Virus record (IMG/VR): IMGVR_UViG_3300033121_001553
Location: 96,001 to 160,000 of that record
Source of the DNA: a virus
Lineage: Duplodnaviria > Caudoviricetes
Strand: one strand, 5' to 3'
Length of the DNA: 64,000 bases
The translations under genes and the position numbers were made by a program. The first letter of the stretch is position 1; each line of letters starts with the position of its first letter. The notes below the pieces were generated by a model. The model was not told the origin of the DNA and made no database searches. It worked only from the letters and a program-made list of their open reading frames with translations. This document shows, one piece after another, positions 2,902 through 58,309 of the stretch.

Positions 2902-2923
2902 AGTCGATTACTTATCTAATCGA

Positions 2924-4813
2924 TAAGATGATGTTCATATTCAGAACCGTTACAGTTCCGAAGTAGTCAGAACGGATCATCTTCTTGCCGTACCGCGTCA
3001 TCACGCCCTTGGTTGGGGTGAAGTCCTGCGGATTGTAGATTGTCTGCGTCATGATGAGTGGCACATATGGCGCGTAGACATATCCCGTCTCAAGATAGTT
3101 ACCGCCCTTGTAGCCAACAAGGATGCGGTTCCTTGGGAAATAAGGATCCTTATAGACGGTAAATCTATTGTTCAGTGTACCGATTGCCTCTGCGCCCATC
3201 TGGAATGGAGAAGCTACCTGACCGTTGCCGTCAATCGACAGCTTGGCCTTGTACGCGATTGCGCTCTCGATAATCGTGCAAACATCTGGCGATGTCACGA
3301 TAAAGTTTGCGCTACCACGCAGGGTCTTACGGTGGATGGTGTTCGCAACGTCGTTGATTGTCTCAACAAGCGTCTGCGCCCACTCCATCGTGTTGCCCGT
3401 GAACTGTGGTCCGATCGACAAGCTCGTTGAGAGATCTCTCTGAGCACCGGTCAGCTTGTTCACGAACACGCCTGGAGCACGGCTCCAGTACAGGTTTGCA
3501 CCATTTGCCTGCGTTAGCAGATCCTGGAGGATCTCGCGGTCAATCTCAAGTGCGATCTGCTCCGACAGTACCTGCGTCAGCTCGACCTCTGCGTCGATGT
3601 TGTGGTACGCGTTCAGATCCTGCGCGAGCTCTGGAGACCAGCGAGCGCGCAGCTTGCGTGATGTTGCAGTGATTGCAATCGACTCAACCTTGATGTTGAC
3701 CTCTGCGATCACTGGGCTTGATGACGAGCCAAAGTCAGACTCGTAGCTTGGCAGCGTCAGAGTCGAACCTGTCGATGAATCGACCTGGAGCTTGTCGCTT
3801 ACGACACCAGACATCTTCATCGAGCCGCCGAGCACAGGTACTGAGCCTGCATTCGAGAGTCTCACGACGAACTGGATGTGGTCACCATTCAGCGCGTCTG
3901 GCGTAAACGTGGTGCCGTTGAAGTTACCACGCTTGTTCAGCTTGCGCAGGTTAAGCACACCAGTACCTGCCTGGAAGCTCTCGCCCCATGCCGTTGCACC
4001 GTTTGCCGTCGAGAACGCTGTGATTGCGAGCTGATCAACCTGGAGCAAGTCGACGTTTGCAATCGCGCTTGTGATCTGCGCAGTTGGAACGTGCACGAAG
4101 CACACGTCAAACGTACCAGCCTCGATACCAGCCTCAACGTCTGGATCGAAGTTGCAGAAGCGAGCGTTCGAGCCAGAGAAGTCAGTCGATGATGCGACTG
4201 TACCAGCTGATGTCCATGCGCCGTTCACTCCCGTGAATGCACCGACCTTCGTCTCAGCCGAAGCCGAAACAGAGTTGCTACCGCTGTGAACCTTCGAGAA
4301 GCCTGAGCCAACGAGGTCGTACATACCACCAGCCGCAAGCGAGCCCGACTGAACTCCCTTACCTGGCGGGTTGTTGTACAGCGACTGTCCAACGGTGTAA
4401 GTCTCATTTGCTGATGATGATGACAAGCTCACGCCTGCATCGCCACCAACGTTTGAGCCGTAGCCATAGTCGATGTAGAACACAAGACCAGATGGCAGCG
4501 ACATTGGCTGAACCGAAACGAGCTCGTTGGCAACGAGGCCACCGAAAACTCTACGTACGATTGGGAACGCAATGTTCGCGAAACCTGCGATCTGACCCGA
4601 CGTTGTAACGTTACCGCCACCTGTCGAGAGCGCGTTTGCCTCCTTTATGAGGCCTACTGCCTGGTTCTCAAGCAGACGGGCCATATGGCTACGGCGCTGT
4701 CCCTCGAGACCCTTGAGCAAGCCCGTCTTCGTCCACTTCTTGACGATGCGTGCTTCCTCTGCACTTCTATTGGGATCCTGGATCCCTTCCATAATATCCT
4801 GATATGTCAACAT
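2924..4813 (-). CDS. gp23: Major capsid protein (T4 gp23-like), 629 aa, TTA stop
   Basis: PIVRRVFGGLVANELVSVQPMSLPSGLVFY, RKLRARWSPELAQDLNAYH, EIDREI, YAPYVPL, GVMTRYG; own ATG 4813; ends ...NMNII-TTA. Confidence 0.93.
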
Positions 4814-4843
4814 TTTTACTTTCCAATCTCCTAAGTTGTGAGC

Positions 4844-6295
4844 TAACTTGATACCAGCCAAAATGCTCCAGCGATCTAGCTCAGCAGACTCTGACAGAGT
4901 CTCCTTCGATGCTGTTGCTGCTCCGCTTTTCACCGTGCGTGATGACGACCCGAGCAGCTGACCGCCGCTCTTGCCTTCTGTCATCGGCTTCTTGTCAGAC
5001 ATTGCCGTTGAAACTGCTGTCTCGTAAACGAGGCGTAGCTCCTTCAACGAGCTTGCTTCATTGACACGCTTGCACGCTGATGCTTTCTGTGCCTTGGTCA
5101 GATTGTCATTCGTGACGATCTTATTCGCGACCTTTGTCTTGGCTAGCATGAGATTCGTCTCACGCAGTTGATTGTAAAGTTGACGTACTTTACGCTCTGC
5201 GACGATAGAGGTATTAAGCTCTCTCATACGGCGTCGCGCCGGTGATGCTGACTCACGCATACGAAGCGCTCTGCGGAAGCGCGACTCGCGTGTTAGCATC
5301 TCGTCATCTTCTTCGGCCTCTTCAGCCATTGGCTCTTCGCCCTCAAGACCCTCAGTCGTAACGTCAGCGTCAAGCCATGGATCACCCATGTCTTCTCCAC
5401 CGCCGAAGTCATCAACTGGCATCTTCTTTGACTCTGCAATTCTTGCACGTACTCTCATAATCTCACGACGAAGCATACGCTCATCAACCTCAACGATTGG
5501 ATCAGCGTCTTTTCTGCCTCTGCTTTCGCCCTGCTGCGTTGGCTTCTTCTCTTCTTCGCCAGCAGCTGCACCGCCAAGAATCGAGTCTAGTTCTGCGTCT
5601 GATGTATCATCACCAGAGCCGTCGGAAGGAGCAGCAGCATCAACATCAGCCTGTTCCTCGTCGCCCTCAGGTGCGCCACCTTCTTCATCTGCAACAATTG
5701 ATACACCGAGCGCTCCAAGATCAAGATCATCTGGCAGCGCCTCGCCGCTAAGCTCGAGTGTAACTTTACCTTCCGACATACGCTTCTTCATTTTTATTTC
5801 CTCTGATGTTTCCTTATTCTTGATCTTTGAGAATGCATCTTCCAGCGCCTCTATTAGAGGCTTTTTCTCCGCTTCACTTGAAGAACTCTCTTTTACGCTT
5901 CTATACATATCGTCGAGACGAGCGACTGCACGCTCACTCATACGAAAAATTGCGCCTACACGCTTTATTTTTGCTGTACGCTTTACGAACTCATCAACAT
6001 TTTCGCAAAGCGACGTAACTTCTGCCTTAAGCTTGTTGAATGATTCATTCTTTGAATCATCATCCGTTAGCACATTTTCTTCGTCTTTATCATCTTCAGT
6101 TGACTCGACGAATTCTTTTTCCATATCATCGCCGCACTCAGTGACGTCAGCTTCATCCGACTCCAACAGAGTCTTTTCAATGAAACTACGTATAGCTGGC
6201 AACGCCGACTCTACGATCTCTTTCTTAGCGCTGTCTTCTGCAAGCTCACGCAATTTTTGCACGTCTGCAAGCGCTTCTTTATAAAGATTCGACAT
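4844..6295 (-). CDS. Prohead scaffolding protein, 483 aa, TTA stop
   Basis: Acidic coiled-coil between protease and MCP; LRETNLMLAK segment; ends RWSILAGIK-TTA, a typical scaffold C-terminus; fused to MCP in the ORF track only because TTA was read as Leu. Confidence 0.8.
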
Positions 6296-14088: not shown

Positions 14089-17000
14089 TCATGAAAATTG
14101 AACGTAGGAGTTGTTTTGTTCATCTTTAACCACCTCTATCTGCTGATCTGCAATATCTTTGATCGCATCAACATGACTTATTACGAGAATAAATCTAAAG
14201 CTGTTTCTCAGCGAAGACAGCAAACTACATATTGACGGTAGCTGAATCTCGTCTAGTGTACCGAAACCTTCGTCTATGATGAAAAAGTCTGGTTTCGGTA
14301 GCACAGAAACTTTATGCAACGCTACTCTTATCGCTATCGATGCTATCGTTTTTTCCATGCCACTGCATAGTTCGATAATGCGTTTTGAGTCATTGTAGTT
14401 GATGAACACTTCAAGACTCGTTGAAGCTTCGTCTTCAAACTCAAGCTCGATCGTAAAGTCAACGTTACCTGCAAGAATTCCAGCAATTTGTCGATTGATG
14501 TAATGCAGCTTCGAACGCATCAAATACGCAGGCAAACCCTTTTTCGAGAATGCTTGCATCAGAAATTCAACAGCTCCGATACGCTTTGAAACATCAAGCT
14601 CAGATATAAGTTTGTCGTTGCTATCTCTTAGCGTATTCTCATCTTTAGCTTTACGCTGTATGATTTGAACAAGTCGCTTTTGAAGCAATTCAACTTTGCT
14701 TTTTTCTGCTTCAAGCTCATTTTTTAGCTTTAGTGCCGCTTCATCATCTTTGCTATGCTCATCATCGACGCTCAGCACTGCTAGTTGCTTTGTAATTTCA
14801 ACTATCTTCTCATTTAGAGAATCGATCTTTGATGCATGTCTTACAACATTTTCTGCGCTCTTCGATAGCTGCACATTTGCTGATGCTATACCTCTTGTAA
14901 GCTCATCTCTTTTCTTGATTTTTTTCGATATTTCTGACTCTTTTTCATCTGAGCACATTGCGGCTGTCGTTTCTATGACAGTCTGCAATTTTTCTATTTT
15001 TGCTGCAAGCTCTGTTAGCTGCATCGAATCTTCAGCAGCGTCCTTTATGTACATGCAGCTTGGGAACGTTCCGCCGCAAGGAACATCTGATAGCTTCAAA
15101 GCATTTTTTTTCTTTGATGAATACGATGCTTCAGTAACACGCTTCTCTGACTTCAAATTCGCCAGTTCATTAGAAAAAATCTTTAGCTGCTTTAGTTCGT
15201 CTGTAAGGGTATCAATGTTGTGCTTATCAACAACACTCTGAGCAACTTCTATTTTTTTCTTTAGTTCATCGCGTACTGCAGTTTCAGCCGTAAGCTGTTC
15301 TTGCACTTCTGCCAGTTGACGCTTTGCTGTTTCAAGTTGCGCTGTTAGACGTTTTCTTTCTAGTATTGTCTGAGCTGTATTCGATACGCCTGCGTATGCT
15401 ATGCTTAGTCGTAGAACATCATCCTCAGCAGATTTCTTTTGCGATTCGCATTCTTCGATTTCTCTGTTAGCGTCGTTTAGTCTATGCTCAAGTGCTGTTA
15501 TTTGTTTCTTTAGCTCATCGATAGAAATACCACCCGACTTTGCTTTGAGCAGTTGTAGCTCTGACTTCATCGTTGCGTGATACGTTTCAAATATGTTGAG
15601 TCCTAGACAACGCGTTACTATCGCTTTGCGCGCTGCTGAACCTACATTTATGAAATTCAGCATGTCGCCTTGGGCTGACAACGCTGTTAGCGCAAAGTCT
15701 TCTCCTGTGCCGATGAACGTTCTAAGCGTACGATCTGTGTCAGATCTCTGCTCAGCAGAAAGTGATACAAGCTCATCGTTAACGTAGCTGTACAATTCAA
15801 GAGTCGTTGGAGCTCCAACAACACCTCGCTTTTGATTCTCAATCTTGCGTGTTTTTCTTTGAAGCGCGTAAACACCATTCGAGCATGTAACAATCGCGCT
15901 TGCACCGCATTCTTGCTTGTTGACGTTAATGTAGCTAATGTTCTTCAGAGAACCACGATCAGACGAGTTATATAGCGCGTACGTTATTGCACCAACGATA
16001 GACGACTTACCAATCCTGTTTCGTCCAAAAACGCCGACTATACCGTTTAGCTTGTTGAAGTCTATTTTGTTATCTCCGCCGTAACAAAACAAATTATCAA
16101 ATTCAAGCTTGTTTATCGTCCAATTTCCGGTGTTTATTTCAACGTTGTTAGTTTGATCAATACAATTTTTGAGTTCATGCGTAATAAGATCACGATCAAA
16201 TTTTGAGTACGACTTTTCATCGTAGTTTCGCAAAAGCTCATGTAGATCGTTAACAGATCTAATGTTTGTTTGCTTATCACCACCGTCAGAACTCAGTTCT
16301 ACTTTCTTGATCTCATCTTGAGATTCATCTTCTATCTTGAATGCAACTTCAAGTCCACCGTAACGTTTTAGCTGATTCGTAATCGTCTGAATTGCCGACT
16401 GTGTCGGTCGTGACGAGCAAAGAACTCTAAATCTAGACTTCGCGGGATACTTTTTGTAGTCTGACAGACCATTCACATCATCCCAATAGAGCGTAACAAA
16501 TGGATTGATAGTCGCAATTTCAACAAATTTCGCTGAAAAGTTTTTCTTTCCTACAATATCCCAGACGTAATATCCGTGCTCATTGATCGATTCACCATGA
16601 TTCTGCTGAATAAACGAGCCTGGATACGCTATCCGTGGTGTAACGACGCCATCTTGAATCGCTACATAGTCAAGACATTGACGCTTGTGAATGTCACCGA
16701 GAAGCGCAATATCGTAGTCATTAAAATAGTCTGTTGTAACATGCCCGTCAACAGCCCATCCAACGTCTGTCTTTGATCCATCAACTGGACCGTGATAGCA
16801 CCCTATCGTAAAACAGTTTGTTTGATCAAACGGCGCTTTATGAGTGTTCCAGCTATCTTGATCAAACAAACTGTAGATGTAAAGCCAAATACCATCGTGG
16901 CTTGCAAACTTATTATCGCCAGTCAGTTTATACCAACCAGACTTTTTGTAGAGACATATTCTAGGATTGTTCAGAGCCTCTACAATTGGTGATATCGCAT

Positions 17001-17286
17001 CCATACGTGTTAGATTCACGATATTACCATCGTGATTTCCGAGCATCATATGAACGGGCGCGACATCAGCCAGCTTCGTTAGCCATGTATTCATTACGCT
17101 AACGAATTCAGGACTTATTCCAGCTGTCTTAGTATGAAAGATATCTCCAGCAATAAAGATGTAATCTACAAGATGATCTTTTGCTGACTTGTAGAATTTT
17201 TCAAACGTTTCTAGGTACTCTTCATGACGAGAAAGTCCACGCCAATGAATATCAGCAAGATGCGCGATTCTAATATTTGATTTCAT
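14089..17286 (-). CDS. Fused Mre11/SbcD nuclease - Rad50/SbcC ATPase (gp47-gp46-like)
   Basis: HLADIH, AGDIFH, GNHD, GDIH phosphoesterase motifs; GRNRIGKSS Walker A; coiled coil with PCGGTFPSC hook; CSGME signature; IIDEGFGTLD Walker B; ISH. Confidence 0.9.
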   Translation of the reverse strand: MKSNIRIAHLADIHWRGLSRHEEYLETFEKFYKSAKDHLVDYIFIAGDIFHTKTAGISPEFVSVMNTWLTKLADVAPVHMMLGNHDGNIVNLTRMDAISPIVEALNNPRICLYKKSGWYKLTGDNKFASHDGIWLYIYSLFDQDSWNTHKAPFDQTNCFTIGCYHGPVDGSKTDVGWAVDGHVTTDYFNDYDIALLGDIHKRQCLDYVAIQDGVVTPRIAYPGSFIQQNHGESINEHGYYVWDIVGKKNFSAKFVEIATINPFVTLYWDDVNGLSDYKKYPAKSRFRVLCSSRPTQSAIQTITNQLKRYGGLEVAFKIEDESQDEIKKVELSSDGGDKQTNIRSVNDLHELLRNYDEKSYSKFDRDLITHELKNCIDQTNNVEINTGNWTINKLEFDNLFCYGGDNKIDFNKLNGIVGVFGRNRIGKSSIVGAITYALYNSSDRGSLKNISYINVNKQECGASAIVTCSNGVYALQRKTRKIENQKRGVVGAPTTLELYSYVNDELVSLSAEQRSDTDRTLRTFIGTGEDFALTALSAQGDMLNFINVGSAARKAIVTRCLGLNIFETYHATMKSELQLLKAKSGGISIDELKKQITALEHRLNDANREIEECESQKKSAEDDVLRLSIAYAGVSNTAQTILERKRLTAQLETAKRQLAEVQEQLTAETAVRDELKKKIEVAQSVVDKHNIDTLTDELKQLKIFSNELANLKSEKRVTEASYSSKKKNALKLSDVPCGGTFPSCMYIKDAAEDSMQLTELAAKIEKLQTVIETTAAMCSDEKESEISKKIKKRDELTRGIASANVQLSKSAENVVRHASKIDSLNEKIVEITKQLAVLSVDDEHSKDDEAALKLKNELEAEKSKVELLQKRLVQIIQRKAKDENTLRDSNDKLISELDVSKRIGAVEFLMQAFSKKGLPAYLMRSKLHYINRQIAGILAGNVDFTIELEFEDEASTSLEVFINYNDSKRIIELCSGMEKTIASIAIRVALHKVSVLPKPDFFIIDEGFGTLDEIQLPSICSLLSSLRNSFRFILVISHVDAIKDIADQQIEVVKDEQNNSYVQFS

Positions 17287-18218
17287 CACTTTAGCAGTTT
17301 ATTCAAGAATTGAGACTTCCAAACGTAAGGCTTCGCTTTTGCAATTGCAGCATGCAATGCAAAACGTTCGGTGTCGCCCGGATCTTTTTTTAGCGTTGCG
17401 TATCTTACGTTTACACCGTAGTCAACAAGTTCAGCGCAAATTTTATTACTTTTCTCAGCAGCATCTGGATCTAGACAGACACAGACAGGTGTATTATTTT
17501 CAACTATTTTGCAGAACAAAGCGTAAGTGTAGTCAAGCTCTGATCCAAGCAGACACGTAGCATTCAACGAACCAACACGCATAAGATCAAACGGTCCTTC
17601 AACGAGAATAAGTTCAATATTCCAGTCAATGTTCAATTCGTTGAATATGATTTCTGTCTTTTTTATGTTGCTATTAACATATTTGTTTTGAATTTTTTGT
17701 TGTCCATAATATCTTCCAACGTAATAGTTCAACTCTCCATTTGCGTCATACGATGGAAAACAAACGTAGTCACGATGCTCTGGACACACAAATAGTTTGT
17801 ACCTGTAAGCGTCATTGATCGTGTATTTTCTTTTAACGATGTAGTCGTACGCTTTGTTTGCTTCATTACTTGCAAGTTTATACACAAGCTCAGAATGATT
17901 TGGCATGTACACAGCTGCATCATTTGCATGTGTACTTGTTCGAAACTCATCGCTTGTGTAGTACCCTGCACTAAAATTTGTGTTGTATTCATGGACCGCT
18001 TGCTTACCAAAGCATTTGTAAAGAAGCGGTCCAAGACTACGTGATCCCCATCCACAGATCCAACAATGCGTTTTATCGTTATCGAGTCTGATCGATAGCT
18101 TCTTTTTATTTGTACCGCATATCGGACATGCTACAACTACGTTAACATGATTCCTCGAGAATTCGATCGAGCCAAAATACTTTTTGATAAAGTTGATTTT
18201 GTCGTCTACTGTAGGCAA
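17286..18218 (-). CDS. DNA primase (Zn finger + TOPRIM)
   Basis: CPIC...HCWIC; LVEGPFD; CLDPDA; KDPGD. Start placed at TTG 18218 because TTA TTA lies at codons 9-10 of the track ORF. Confidence 0.85.
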   Translation of the reverse strand: MPTVDDKINFIKKYFGSIEFSRNHVNVVVACPICGTNKKKLSIRLDNDKTHCWICGWGSRSLGPLLYKCFGKQAVHEYNTNFSAGYYTSDEFRTSTHANDAAVYMPNHSELVYKLASNEANKAYDYIVKRKYTINDAYRYKLFVCPEHRDYVCFPSYDANGELNYYVGRYYGQQKIQNKYVNSNIKKTEIIFNELNIDWNIELILVEGPFDLMRVGSLNATCLLGSELDYTYALFCKIVENNTPVCVCLDPDAAEKSNKICAELVDYGVNVRYATLKKDPGDTERFALHAAIAKAKPYVWKSQFLNKLLK

Positions 18219-18247: not shown

Positions 18248-18820
18248 TCACTTACAATATGTTTTTTTAGCAACAGCAGCCATTACAACAGCGTCTGACT
18301 CATCATAAGCCCACGAATATGGTTTTTCTGTCTTCTTATTTATCCAGTCATCGACTTTGCTGGGATAGCGTTTCAAGTTATCGTCGAATACGTCTTGTTT
18401 CTTATTCTTTGATCCTTTAATATTTGGATAACCACATTTTTTTCTGCCATGCGACACTGACACATGACAAAACTTGTAGTCGTATGATGAGTGCACCTCT
18501 GTAAACAGCTTATGCAGACCGTACGTTATCATACCATTGAAAAACTGCAGCTTGGATATTGTACCTGCCGATGTTCTACCTTGCGCGTACGCTTTTGCTG
18601 GTTCTTCAATGCACAATGATAGTTTTAGCCTACGCGTTGATAGATTCATCAGTGAAAGCATGAACTCTGCAATGACACGATCAGCAAAATTTACAAGTTC
18701 CTCATCTTTACTTCTGCTCACGTGAGTTGTCACAAGCTTATCATCGCAAAAGAAAGCAATGCCAACTGTCGTTGTTGATATGTCAAACCCGGCGTAAACC
18801 GTCGCGTATTCCGCATTCAT
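18248..18820 (-). CDS. RuvC-like Holliday junction resolvase
   Basis: GFDISTTTVG, CIEEP, YDESDAVVMA acidic catalytic pattern. Confidence 0.75.
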   Translation of the reverse strand: MNAEYATVYAGFDISTTTVGIAFFCDDKLVTTHVSRSKDEELVNFADRVIAEFMLSLMNLSTRRLKLSLCIEEPAKAYAQGRTSAGTISKLQFFNGMITYGLHKLFTEVHSSYDYKFCHVSVSHGRKKCGYPNIKGSKNKKQDVFDDNLKRYPSKVDDWINKKTEKPYSWAYDESDAVVMAAVAKKTYCK

Positions 18821-19196
18821 TCTTCGCGATCATACCATCTGTCGCAAAAATGTACACTGCATTGTTCCAACGACACCAAGCTTCTGCGAACTTTGACTTT
18901 TTGATAACACCAACTTTTTTCAATCTTGAAGTTGGTTTAATTTCAACAATGTAAAGTTTACCTGCTTTCGTTAGAACAGCAACGTCTGGCCAGTACACTC
19001 TAGTTCTTTTACCTACTCTGTACGGTATACCAAACGGTTCGTAAACGTACGCTGCGATACAGTCATTTGAGTCAAGTAGCTGCATGTAATCGTATTCTAG
19101 CTTAGAACGTGTTAGACACTCAAATCCAACAAGCTTCCTTGACACATGCTTACATCTTTTTGGCGTTCTATTGCTTTTTTTTCTCTTTGCTGCCAT
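18795..19196 (-). CDS. TnsA-like endonuclease / head-completion nuclease (gp4-like), TTA stop
   Basis: RSKLE, YEPFGIPY, YWPD, VEIKP motifs; starts at TTATG coupling. Confidence 0.75.
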
Positions 19197-21517
19197 AAGT
19201 AATCTATTCTTGGCTTAAACACAATTGACTGACTGAATCGTTTTTCTATCGGTTGCGCAAGATGAGCTCTGATCACGACATTGAAATTCGAGTCATGAAA
19301 ATTGATTCGCGATATCTTCACGATGGGCTCATCTTGAGCTGCGTATCTGTAGCTAGATGTACCATAGACAAAGTTTGTATTTGAAGATGTGTTGTAATGT
19401 CCCGCAGGAGCAATAGCTGTTAGCTTTACAACGTTAACATCACGTGAACCTTCAAATTCCATACCATAGCTATCATTACCAAATGGGTAAAGATGCGGTG
19501 ACTTTACGAATACTATACCTTGCTCGTAAAAGATATTACCAACGCTGTTCCAAGCTGATGCTGATGTTACGCAGTTCGCTCTGTAAAGATTACCGTTACC
19601 ATCGTCACGTAGCAGAACGCTTAGCGCTCCGTTCGTTCCAGAAAGGCTGCTGCTAAGCTTGAACGTACCAGGCGTTATCTTGTCACCGTAGTACAAATTG
19701 CTAATGCTAAAAACAGTGATTTGATTTGAATTACTATCTTTTGTTCTGTTGAATATCGTTAGAGCGCTACCTGGAGCATTTTTGATGTCTCCTGTTTCTG
19801 GCGCAACACCACCTATCACCTTGTCTATGCTAGATGTTGCTTGTATAAATCTTCCAGCAAGCAATGAAGAAGTAGATATCAAATCACGAAGATTTATCCA
19901 GCTGCCATCTGATGTGTCTGTGGAGTCACGGTAGTGGTTGTTGGCAGCTGTTACGTACGTTGATATAACACCAAGATTCGGTATGTAGTTACCGTCATCG
20001 CATGGTAGAATCAAAAGATTTCTCGCGATGAAACTCCCGCTTTGGTACAGAAGATCGTTAGCTGGAGCTGCAGCTGTTGTAGTTGAAATCTCATGAGCTA
20101 GCATGTTGTATGCTAGCGGATATCGTTTTGAACCAAAGTCATACAGAAAATTTTCGATATTTATTAGATGTCCGCCAACAGAAAACGCCAGCGATGTGTT
20201 AAAAGGTGTTTCTGTAGATCCGTCTGACGCGTAGAAAGGCGTTTCGAGAATGCCGCCGTAACCATCGACTGCGCTTCTCGTTGGACTCGTTGGAATGAAA
20301 TAAGGTGGAAGATAGAAGGCAACATCACGCATGTCGCTGCTACCAGTGCACGTCATTTCTTCAATTTCACGATTTGTTACGTATCGTTTGATGATCTTCA
20401 AATCATGAATTTCAGCACGCAGTCTGTGTCTAAAGTTGAAATTTGCGGGCTCTTCTGTCGCTGGCGTTGTAGTGACATTTATAAGTCCCTCACGCGTTGA
20501 TGGATTTGTCGCAAACCACAGTGCTTGAGCATTTCCACCTGTATTATTACCCTCATAAAAATTTCCAACAAACAACGCGTTTGAACTCAAACTGTTCAAC
20601 GATGACGATGGAACAACGAATGTTCCTCTTAGCGTACCATCTACGTAAAAACTACCAGTTCCACGATCACGTGAATTCGTACCCCATCGTACAAGCACAT
20701 GATGCCACGCGTTAAGTTTCAAACAGTCATCTGAGTAAAATGCTAGATCACGTGGATACGCTGCCGCAACGCTTGGGTTTAGCTCGCTTGGTCTCTTTTC
20801 TGCTGTACGTTCTAGCTGAAGTGCTACGCGAAACGTATTTGCTCTACCGTACTGATCACGTCCAGATCCAGTTATAAGAGACAAACAGTAGCTAGACGAT
20901 ACATGCACAATAGCGCCAGCAGTAATTGGCACAGATGAATCATCAGCTGAATTTGGTTTTATGTACGTTTCTATTGTGAATGCACCAGTGACGGTGTACT
21001 CGCTACCGGTCATTGGGTAGATAAGAACAGACGCAGTTGGTACATTCGAGCAAGAAAAGAAATTAAGACAGTTGTAATTCGTATAAGCATACTGCGCTGC
21101 ATTCGAGTATAGTCTCTGTTCACGCAGCAAGCTATTCTTTACAAGTGACTTAACAGCAAACTTATCATTGTACACAAATCCTGGTACAATTCTATCAATC
21201 AACTGCGTTGCTGAATTTCTTCTGCTTTGGTTACGACGATTTACTTCGCTCATATAAGCAGACATTACGCTTGCGTTACTGCTGCCAACACGACCGAGCA
21301 AAGACGCCTTCTTCAGTATATCGTCTATCGACTGATCGTTAGCTGCGCTATCACCGAGGCTCGACGATAGAGAAATGTCTTTCTCTATCGTCGAGCTTCT
21401 ACCGAGCACAGTCAGAGAGCCAGTTACACCAGTTGAGCTGCTAACGTAGACGCGCTTTGGATTTACGCGCAGCGCGTAGATCTCAACATCGTTTTGCGTC
21501 AAACGTTGCGTTGTCAT
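19196..21517 (-). CDS. Virion structural protein with LamG-like domain, TTA stop
   Basis: FTIETYIKP, WHHVLVRW, EIHDLKI LamG-like strands; C-terminal domain paralogous to 21530-22720, ending PRIDY-TTA. Confidence 0.75.
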
Positions 21518-21529
21518 AAGCGAAAGCTC

Positions 21530-22720
21530 TCAGTAGTCGATCCTTAGACGTAGCGACAAGTCTTTCTCTGGATTCTTTTCAACTGGACGAGAAAGCTTAC
21601 CAACTGCTAGCAAGTTATCGTTTGCATCGTACAGTCCAACTGTCGTAACCATCGTAAACGACTGCTGCGTATCTTCCTGTCCCTCGTCGATCACAACGAT
21701 TCTATTGTTACTGTCAATAAATGTTGGGTTAGAAGAGTAGTTGAACTCATCTGCGCTTGCTCTGCAGAATACAAGTGTTGAGTTGATGTTTGTAACATTC
21801 TGGAATGTCATGGCTGTAATCGAACCAGACGAGAATCTAACTCCACAGATATGATCAAGAATATTGTCGATAGAACCGCTTACAACAAAGTCTGGTATAA
21901 ATGCAGCATTTGCATTACCAGATCCAGCGCGGCCAATAACCATCTGCCCAGTTGAGTTAACAGCGTCAACTGTACCTGTCATGAACTGACTTCCTGACGT
22001 AATTCTGTTCAAGTCAAGAACAATGATGCCGCGATCATAAAAAACCAGACCACCGTAATTTGCAGTGTTTGATGAATTTACGATATTACCGACCTGACCA
22101 CCGTATGTAGTAATCTTATTCGTTGATGAACCAACATCTGTGTAAACTGTCGCTCCAAGCGTTGTTGGGGCACCAAGGTTCGACTGCGCTGCTGTCGTAG
22201 ACGCCGTCTGATAGAACTGCAACGCGAGTGTCTCTCTCTTTATCTGATCACGTGAAAAGAGACGTTTCATGCAAATGAAAAGCGCACAGTCTATTTTTTC
22301 ATTTGCGTTAGTTGAATCGAACGGAGAGGCAAATTGCAGATCCTTATCACCAAGCAATGTTTGCGCAAACTGCTGATATATCGACATCTTCTCTCTCATC
22401 ATCAAGCTTGACGACGGGAAAAGTGGCTTACCAGCAGCATCTTCGCTTAGTTTCGATGAGCTAACGGTTGAACCGTTCGGATAAAGCCCAACTGTAATAT
22501 CAAAGATCGGATTTGCAGTTTGATAAGTAAAATCCTGATCGTAAACTGTCTGAAACAAGCTTGACGTAACGCCGGGTCCGAGCCCACCAGTAACGAATAC
22601 TTGATATTTCTTACGTGATGTGCTACCAGAAACGTCTTCCTGTATCACGTCGATAATCTGTGATAGAGAAGAACGCTGAACTTTTATATCGTTGCTGTTA
22701 ATTTCTTTAAATGTTGCCAT
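21530..22720 (-). CDS. Virion (baseplate/tail) structural protein
   Basis: EFNYSSNPTF...TTVGLYDANDNLLAVGKLSRPVEK...LRIDY-TGA C-terminal domain. Confidence 0.75.
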   Translation of the reverse strand: MATFKEINSNDIKVQRSSLSQIIDVIQEDVSGSTSRKKYQVFVTGGLGPGVTSSLFQTVYDQDFTYQTANPIFDITVGLYPNGSTVSSSKLSEDAAGKPLFPSSSLMMREKMSIYQQFAQTLLGDKDLQFASPFDSTNANEKIDCALFICMKRLFSRDQIKRETLALQFYQTASTTAAQSNLGAPTTLGATVYTDVGSSTNKITTYGGQVGNIVNSSNTANYGGLVFYDRGIIVLDLNRITSGSQFMTGTVDAVNSTGQMVIGRAGSGNANAAFIPDFVVSGSIDNILDHICGVRFSSGSITAMTFQNVTNINSTLVFCRASADEFNYSSNPTFIDSNNRIVVIDEGQEDTQQSFTMVTTVGLYDANDNLLAVGKLSRPVEKNPEKDLSLRLRIDY

Positions 22721-22722
22721 TC

Positions 22723-23439
22723 TCAGTCGCCCTTGCGGATATTAACTCTGAATTCTGAAACTGCGCCGCTTTGAGCGCCAGTGACCCTAACATACGTTGC
22801 TATCACGTTTTTGTCAGCTGTTGTACCGTAGATCGTAAATTGAGCGTCTGTTATCGACTTTACTGAAAGAGCAAATTGAAGTATGCTACCTTGATAGCTA
22901 TTTTCTGTTGGTGATCTCGACAAGATGTAAGTTGCACGTTGCTGAGCGTCTATGCTGTCTGGCGTCTGTCTCAATATCTGAAGGAAAATGTTTGAAAGCT
23001 CAACGATGAATACCTGATCTCTTAGTTCTGGATCTATCGTAGGCTCGTTTATGATCGTCTGCTCACATGTTATCGATGCTGTGAGCTTACGTACACTTCC
23101 AAGCGAAACAACAGATGTAGAACTTGAAACGTTTGAATCTCCAGAAAGCGAAAGCGACGGCAAGCGAACTAGATTTGGATTAGACACGCTGATCATTTTG
23201 TACTTCAACGCGTTGCCTGCCGATGTTATTCCTTCGAAAATCGGAGTATTCTTCTCTATTTTTTCTTTTCCAACTGATCTACCGTATCGTTTGATCACAG
23301 TATAGTCAACTTCATCATCGCCAAACGCAAATTTTGCTATAGCGAAGCTACCATCATTTTTCGCTAGAAGTTGTCTGCCAACATCAGTTAGCACTGTATC
23401 AAGAATTATGTTATTGGTCGAGCCGTCAAGAAATCCCAT
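22723..23439 (-). CDS. Virion structural protein
   Basis: MGFLD...ILDTVLTDVGRQLLA...KFAFGDDEVDY; N-terminus paralogous to 31134-31988. Confidence 0.7.
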   Translation of the reverse strand: MGFLDGSTNNIILDTVLTDVGRQLLAKNDGSFAIAKFAFGDDEVDYTVIKRYGRSVGKEKIEKNTPIFEGITSAGNALKYKMISVSNPNLVRLPSLSLSGDSNVSSSTSVVSLGSVRKLTASITCEQTIINEPTIDPELRDQVFIVELSNIFLQILRQTPDSIDAQQRATYILSRSPTENSYQGSILQFALSVKSITDAQFTIYGTTADKNVIATYVRVTGAQSGAVSEFRVNIRKGD

Positions 23440-58236: not shown

Positions 58237-58307
58237 GCGTCATTTGCGTAGTGGCAACGCAGTTGATTCTAAATCGACTTACGCGGGTTCGATTCCCGCA
58301 TGACGCA
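58237..58307 (+). tRNA. tRNA with CUA anticodon (amber suppressor)
   Basis: Acceptor GCGTCAT/ATGACGC, D stem GCGT/ACGC with AGTGG, anticodon stem GTTGA/TCGAC with loop TT-CTA-AA, T arm GCGGG-TTCGATT-CCCGC, discriminator A, no encoded CCA. Confidence 0.9.
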
Positions 58308-58309
58308 CG

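Follow-up and report, generated by a model that had tools for sequence, protein, structure and literature searches.

A TTA codon closes a phage gene where its homologues stop, pointing to UUA as a probable fourth termination signal

In a 64,000-nucleotide (nt) stretch of a large, uncultured tailed bacteriophage (hereafter the window; positions 96,001 to 160,000 of IMG/VR record IMGVR_UViG_3300033121_001553, Caudoviricetes), two neighbouring sister genes were seen in the sequence to close in a similar manner, P0002 with ...LRLRIDY followed by TGA and P0001 with ...KPRIDY followed by TTA, as the original prediction had described. We conclude that P0001 very probably ends at this TTA and that UUA would serve in this phage as a fourth termination signal and not as a leucine codon. 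The TTA appears to act as a stop at the end of P0001 because all of its relatives in which this part of the gene is contained, 82 out of 82, stop exactly there. As far as sequence comparison reaches, the analysis has shown that the gene ends at TTA, that genes end likewise across the genome, and that the junction with the next gene, P0003, which encodes a TnsA-like endonuclease, has the same geometry as the junction of a relative that uses TGA.

The P0001 relatives were fetched from 36 viral and 55 metagenome loci, and the 82 that contain the C-terminus comprise 60 distinct sequences. In each of them TAA, TGA or TAG directly follows the residue aligned with Y773 of P0001. Translation table 11 would append a tail of 28 residues to P0001 (L774-V801, LWQQREKK...), and neither this tail nor any other extension was found in any of the 82 loci. 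The original prediction, according to which TTA stands in place of a stop and homologues carrying that tail would speak to the contrary, is thus upheld, except that the extension had been counted as 29 residues. Homologues of P0002, present in 31 loci, match it along residues 1-396 and end at the last of these. At the junction equivalent to that of P0001 and P0003, locus L007 reads ATC GAC TAC TGA TG, that is IDY-TGATG, followed by the TnsA-like gene (MPKKRKRRR...), and loci L006 and L033 carry TAA, a single base and ATG. The reciprocal case was found as well: the P0002 orthologue closes with RLDY-TTA in L018 and with RLDF-TTA in L037, and the P0001 orthologues of these two loci close with TGA or TAA. 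This homology check of TTA ends covers the P0001/P0002 pair and its neighbours. In L018 (73-2124) and L037 (1667-2977), the gene preceding the P0002 orthologue ends DKNL-TTA. L002 is a near-twin of L018, yet its P0002 orthologue continues for 10 residues to a TAA and the DNA diverges from that point on, which suggests that this end is a rearrangement breakpoint.

P0001 and P0002 had been described as paralogues, and this holds for their C-terminal part and not for the remainder. By BLASTP the two proteins share 95 C-terminal residues (E = 3e-7), the alignment stopping at IDY in both. A 99-position hidden Markov model (HMM), built from the C-terminal domains of homologues of both families, matches these two genes only in the 187-kb contig (E = 2e-34 and 1e-27), and its last position falls on residue 773 of P0001 and residue 396 of P0002. 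Judged by these alignments, the paralogy is real and limited to the C-terminal part, and the two genes form a clean internal control for a putative phage code in which UUA means stop.

The junction between P0001 and P0003 reads TAC TTA TGG (19201..19193, minus strand), the A at 19196 being both the last base of TTA and the first base of the P0003 ATG, as originally noted. This start is backed by six P0003 homologues, which align from Met1 and share a Lys/Arg-rich N-terminal tail. Read with table 11, P0001 would extend 85 nt into P0003. We read 19112..19195 as untranslated in the P0001 frame and as coding, in another frame, for the basic N-terminus of P0003; the basic tail common to the P0003 homologues would explain the sequence that spells the extension in the P0001 frame. 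In bacteria and phages, overlaps of the ATGA, TAATG and TGATG types are known to couple the translation of adjacent genes or to let terminating ribosomes reinitiate. As in these known stop-start junctions, one base is common to stop and start at P0001/P0003, with the difference that the stop member is TTA. The likeness to TAATG and TGATG that had been proposed is borne out by the IDY-TGATG of L007. An eight-A run, AGAGAAAAAAAAGC, lies at 19160..19175 (minus strand) within the first codons of the TnsA-like gene, and slippage might occur there.

The behaviour of TTA at the end of P0001 is that of TTA across the whole contig (186,819 bp, GC content 43%, CheckV completeness 52%). TTA occurs there 97 times in frame, the counts for the two remaining frames being 1473 and 669. 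No fewer than 55 of the 97 in-frame TTAs fall within the last 30 codons of table-11 open reading frames (ORFs), where 14.3 were expected and 29 was the maximum reached in 5000 permutations; in the same ORF-end test, control codons gave 5-16%. Of the remaining in-frame TTAs, some precede the probable start of their gene, others separate two genes that table 11 runs together, with a start codon following the TTA, and a last group belongs to a spurious ORF overlying tRNA genes. TTA ends were found on both strands. A simple gene model with four stops comprises 210 genes, of which 97 end with TGA, 67 with TTA, 39 with TAA and 7 with TAG, and the distance from a TTA to the next gene resembles that from a TAA. 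No Pfam domain crosses a TTA in seven ORFs with long tails. The 1127-aa (amino acid) ORF at 2912..6295 (minus strand) carries TTA at codons 483 and 487, then GGAG and an ATG opening 629 codons, and looks like two genes joined by TTA codons only.

Coding potential was measured as codon log-odds of in-frame versus off-frame usage, for TTA tails of 3-60 codons, since tails running into in-frame downstream genes swamp the signal. Gene bodies score +0.316 in frame and -0.157 off frame. Just before TTA the value is still +0.298, and it drops to -0.031 in the tails after TTA, compared with -0.056 in the in-frame continuation past ordinary stops; the fall in codon bias at TTA thus parallels that at ordinary stops. 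The P0001 tail scores -0.148, and the same bases read in the P0003 frame score +0.072.

Contigs from four sequencing runs belonging to four studies, among them a wastewater metatranscriptome library and an aquaculture metagenome, span the 4.1 kb of 18700..22800 with 99.6-99.8% identity. Positions 19194..19201 and 21530..21532 are identical in all four strains, the TTA being kept. Single-nucleotide polymorphisms (SNPs) among them fall on third codon positions in 10 of 11 cases in P0001 and in 5 of 6 in P0002. Avoidance of TTA was also observed in more distant phages. The L002, L018 and L037 loci contain 4-5 in-frame TTAs per ~2,000-3,000 codons versus 45-84 in the next frame. Over whole records, the counts by frame are 57/519/323 for L002 (104 kb) and 40/214/127 for L018 (42.5 kb), and each seemingly interior TTA of these two records is followed by the start codon of a long ORF. 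In a maximum-likelihood tree of P0001 (loci L001-L063), the studied phage lies outside a clade with 100/99 support, and within this clade L037, L002 and L018 are nested together among phages whose genes employ TTA for leucine in the normal way. Taken at face value, this topology needs at least two changes, gains or losses, of the TTA-free trait; gene exchange could alternatively account for the pattern, the tree resting on a single gene of tail type.

A genome-wide count of TTATG junctions against chance had been suggested as a check. TG directly follows the stop in 10 of the 67 genes ending with TTA (15%), in 6 of the 39 ending with TAA (15%) and in 9 of the 97 ending with TGA, compared with 8.1% after out-of-frame TTA. 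The motif is thus as common as TAATG. Seven of the ten ATGs in question open an ORF of >= 45 codons, three of them unambiguous (two TTATGG and one TTATGT) and four TTATGA. In the gene model, a one-base overlap marks 6 of the 57 junctions after TTA and 4 of the 34 after TAA. At junctions TTA behaves, in sequence terms, like TAA, and the motif count alone is weak evidence.

We propose that ribosomes finishing P0001 would stop on UUA and that, since the last base of UUA is the A of AUG, the terminating ribosome could start the TnsA-like gene, the overlap giving translational coupling. By analogy with organelles, a class-I release factor of widened specificity would release the chain at UUA. This factor would most likely be the host's, since the contigs available encode none. 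Several points weigh against this interpretation. The support for UUA as a stop in this phage lies at the level of DNA sequence. No RF-1 or PCRF domain was detected in the contig, 52% complete, or in the records of two relatives. The absence of a leucine tRNA covers the phage contig alone, the tRNA set of the host lying outside it. There are no SNPs in the 85-nt tail across the four strains, hence no local test of selection. Lastly, the enrichment in TTATG over background is weak (binomial p = 0.04), and seven of the ten occurrences are TTATGA, which is compatible with an ordinary ATGA overlap. One candidate release-factor match was rejected: a PCRF hit in the portal gene (E = 1.8e-4) spans 31 residues, is sub-threshold and was taken as noise.

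The contig carries 12 tRNA genes, none of them for leucine and one with the anticodon CUA. The latter, of amber suppressor type, is 72 nt long and lies at 58237..58308 on the plus strand; among the 14 table-11 ORFs closed by TAG, 10 show an in-frame TTA a short way upstream of that TAG, and in the four-stop model TAG ends 7 of the 210 genes. A cluster of nine tRNA genes (Gly, Ser, His, Glu x2, Lys, Gln, Met x2) was located outside the window at genome C1:185083..186019, and the spurious 119-aa table-11 ORF that covers it contains six in-frame TTAs. We see a little less than an even chance that the phage mirrors its host in this respect, the host being a free-living bacterium that reads UUA as stop, with an altered release factor and no tRNA-Leu(UAA), and that unrelated branches infecting it each purged UUA and adopted it as a terminator.

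Gene ends identical to those described above would also be obtained if UUA were an unassigned, or hungry, codon, the mechanism alone being different: with no tRNA to read it, ribosomes would stall and the chain would be freed by rescue of the ArfB, Pth or tmRNA type, not by a release factor recognising UUA. The lack of both a leucine tRNA and a release factor in the contig fits this possibility. We nevertheless regard it as unlikely, since 67 of the 210 genes, roughly one in three, would rely on slow rescue, which in bacteria usually tags the products for degradation, and since TTA junctions are as tight as TAA junctions, which suggests normal termination; in organelles, moreover, UUA as stop goes with an altered RF2 (PMC12574857). 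A programmed frameshift from P0001 into P0003 at a hungry UUA was considered separately and rejected, given that the flanking codons offer no re-pairing and that the 67 contexts are alike.

TTA could instead still encode leucine, an ancestral TGA or TAA having mutated to TTA to give P0001 a lineage-specific extension of 28 residues and the 85-nt overlap. Table 11 does leave 27 further codons open, and a single base change turns the TGATG of L007 into TTATG. We consider this very improbable, however: none of the 82 homologues has the extension, 67 genes would need one while gene interiors lack TTA, the codon usage of the tail is off-frame, and its sequence is accounted for by the conserved basic N-terminus of P0003. 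Hardly any credence can be given to the idea that TTA is a miscalled or misassembled TAA or TGA, or that UUA is edited to UAA. Dinoflagellate plastids do edit away or create such codons (PMC12574857), a precedent with nothing specific to the present case. All four runs, each belonging to a different study, gave contigs with TTA at 19196..19198, errors would not clear TTA from the interiors of all genes, and relatives from other metagenomes behave alike; against editing, TTA is present in the wastewater metatranscriptome contig, a weak point as that library may also hold DNA. We also discarded the insertion of the TnsA-like gene as a recent mobile element that destroyed the stop of P0001, since in roughly half of the viral loci this gene is conserved beside the P0001 homologue and the stops are intact. 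Termination at UUA thus remains our preferred reading of the P0001 end.

All genes of the region, P0001, P0002 and P0003 included, are encoded by the minus strand (Table 1).

Table 1. Coordinates of the P0002-P0001-P0003 region in the window.
Feature	Position	Strand	Description
P0002	21530..22720	-	396 aa, no family match; ends ...LRLRIDY, TGA at 21532..21530
P0001, table 11 reading	19112..21517	-	801 aa; ...KPRIDY, TTA, 27 sense codons, TAA at 19114..19112
P0001, four-stop reading	19196..21517	-	773 aa, putative end ...KPRIDY + TTA
TTA codon closing P0001	19196..19198	-	stands where 82/82 homologues have TAA/TGA/TAG
Table-11 tail of P0001	19112..19195	-	27 sense codons + TAA
P0003, TnsA-like endonuclease	18783..19196	-	137 aa; start ATG at 19196..19194
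C-terminal beta domain common to both, P0002 copy	21533..21838	-	residues 295-396
C-terminal beta domain common to both, P0001 copy	19199..19495	-	residues 675-773

By sequence similarity, P0003 is a TnsA-like PD-(D/E)xK endonuclease. It matches the TnsA-like N-terminal domain of Pfam (PF08722; 36.5 bits for a cut-off of 26.5) as well as PHROG endonuclease and 'head closure' families, and its PD-(D/E)xK residues D71, E85 and K87 do not vary among the aligned homologues. In roughly half of the viral loci, a TnsA-like gene closely follows the P0001 homologue. P0003 overlaps the next ORF (190 aa, 18248..18820) by 38 nt (18783..18820, minus strand), in both codes alike, and the real start of that ORF may be further in.

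P0001 carries a Laminin_G_3/ConA-like Pfam domain at residues 177-323. Searches with P0001 by tblastn and with the region by blastn against 50,697 phage records returned nothing, and a metagenome scan found no P0001 relative above ~40% identity. P0002 has no match in Pfam, PHROG, NCBIfam or PDB, including a PDB profile search, and searching phage records with it gave distant 'hypothetical protein' matches only. An AlphaFold2 (AF2) model of P0002 was obtained with a predicted local distance difference test (pLDDT) score of 76 and places the final beta-strand at residues 388-395. Compared with PDB by Foldseek, this model matched nothing at E <= 0.001; VIA-align retrieved small beta domains only, the best being a phi812 baseplate chain (Z = 4.8, 77 residues), and BFVD and the ESM Atlas returned uncharacterised phage proteins only. 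In the cultured Flavobacterium phage vB_FspM_immuto, a distant P0002 homologue lies between annotated baseplate wedge and tail fibre genes. P0002 probably comes from a baseplate or tail-periphery module, and a role at the tail periphery is plausible from gene order in this one cultured phage. The term 'virion proteins' used in the original prediction therefore finds backing in that gene order, without a family or fold match.

The window also encodes a T4-type portal and a large terminase. An ORF of 1066 aa at 14089..17289 (minus strand), free of TTA in its frame, has a Metallophos (Mre11/SbcD-like) N-terminus together with AAA_23/SMC_N (Rad50/SbcC-like) domains. In T4, the Mre11/SbcD-like and Rad50/SbcC-like subunits are separate genes; judging from its domains, the ORF appears to be a real fusion of two nuclease subunits.

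If UUA is indeed a stop in this phage, a sense-to-stop change outside organelles joins the known genetic codes, and the factor reading UUA becomes a concrete search target; if the host too reads UUA as stop, its genome would be the first of a cell, rather than of an organelle, to have a sense-to-stop code. With table 11, gene callers would misannotate about a third of the genes of this phage, producing false C-terminal tails, long overlaps and fusions, and the codon could mark phage-host pairs. P0001 and P0002 offer a compact test case, in which one domain occurs in two adjacent copies, closed by TGA and by TTA, with an orthologous TGATG in a relative.

In our literature search, the reassignment of UUA to stop was found published for mitochondria and plastids only, with no phage or bacterial case. 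The labyrinthulean mitochondrial code is NCBI table 23. UUA is a known stop in labyrinthulean (Thraustochytrium) mitochondria, UUA and UCA are stops in peDinoflagellate plastids, and UUA and UUG are stops in the mitochondria of Marsupiomonadales and Pseudoscourfieldia, the plastid case having been called the first sense-to-stop change outside mitochondria (PMC12574857). These organellar codes are linked to an altered codon-reading region of RF2 or RF1, for example by a substitution of the RF2 Ser204 type (PMC12574857). As in organelles, UUA is missing in the phage from conserved internal positions and sits at the stops of homologues, and many genes end with it while standard stops are still used. 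Unlike the organellar cases, the present one concerns a tailed phage of bacteria from wastewater and aquaculture metagenomes, the altered release factor was not found in the phage contigs, and the trait occurs in at least two branches of the P0001 tree. Recoding is otherwise known in phages from the crAss-like and Lak groups, in which TAG or TGA is read as an amino acid with the help of suppressor tRNAs (PMC7886860, PMC8346664). The resemblance is that table 11 miscalls genes and that the contig has a CUA tRNA and hardly ends genes with TAG. In contrast to those phages, the change proposed here turns a sense codon into a stop, which would need a termination factor rather than a tRNA, and the use of TTA affects both strands and not a late block only.

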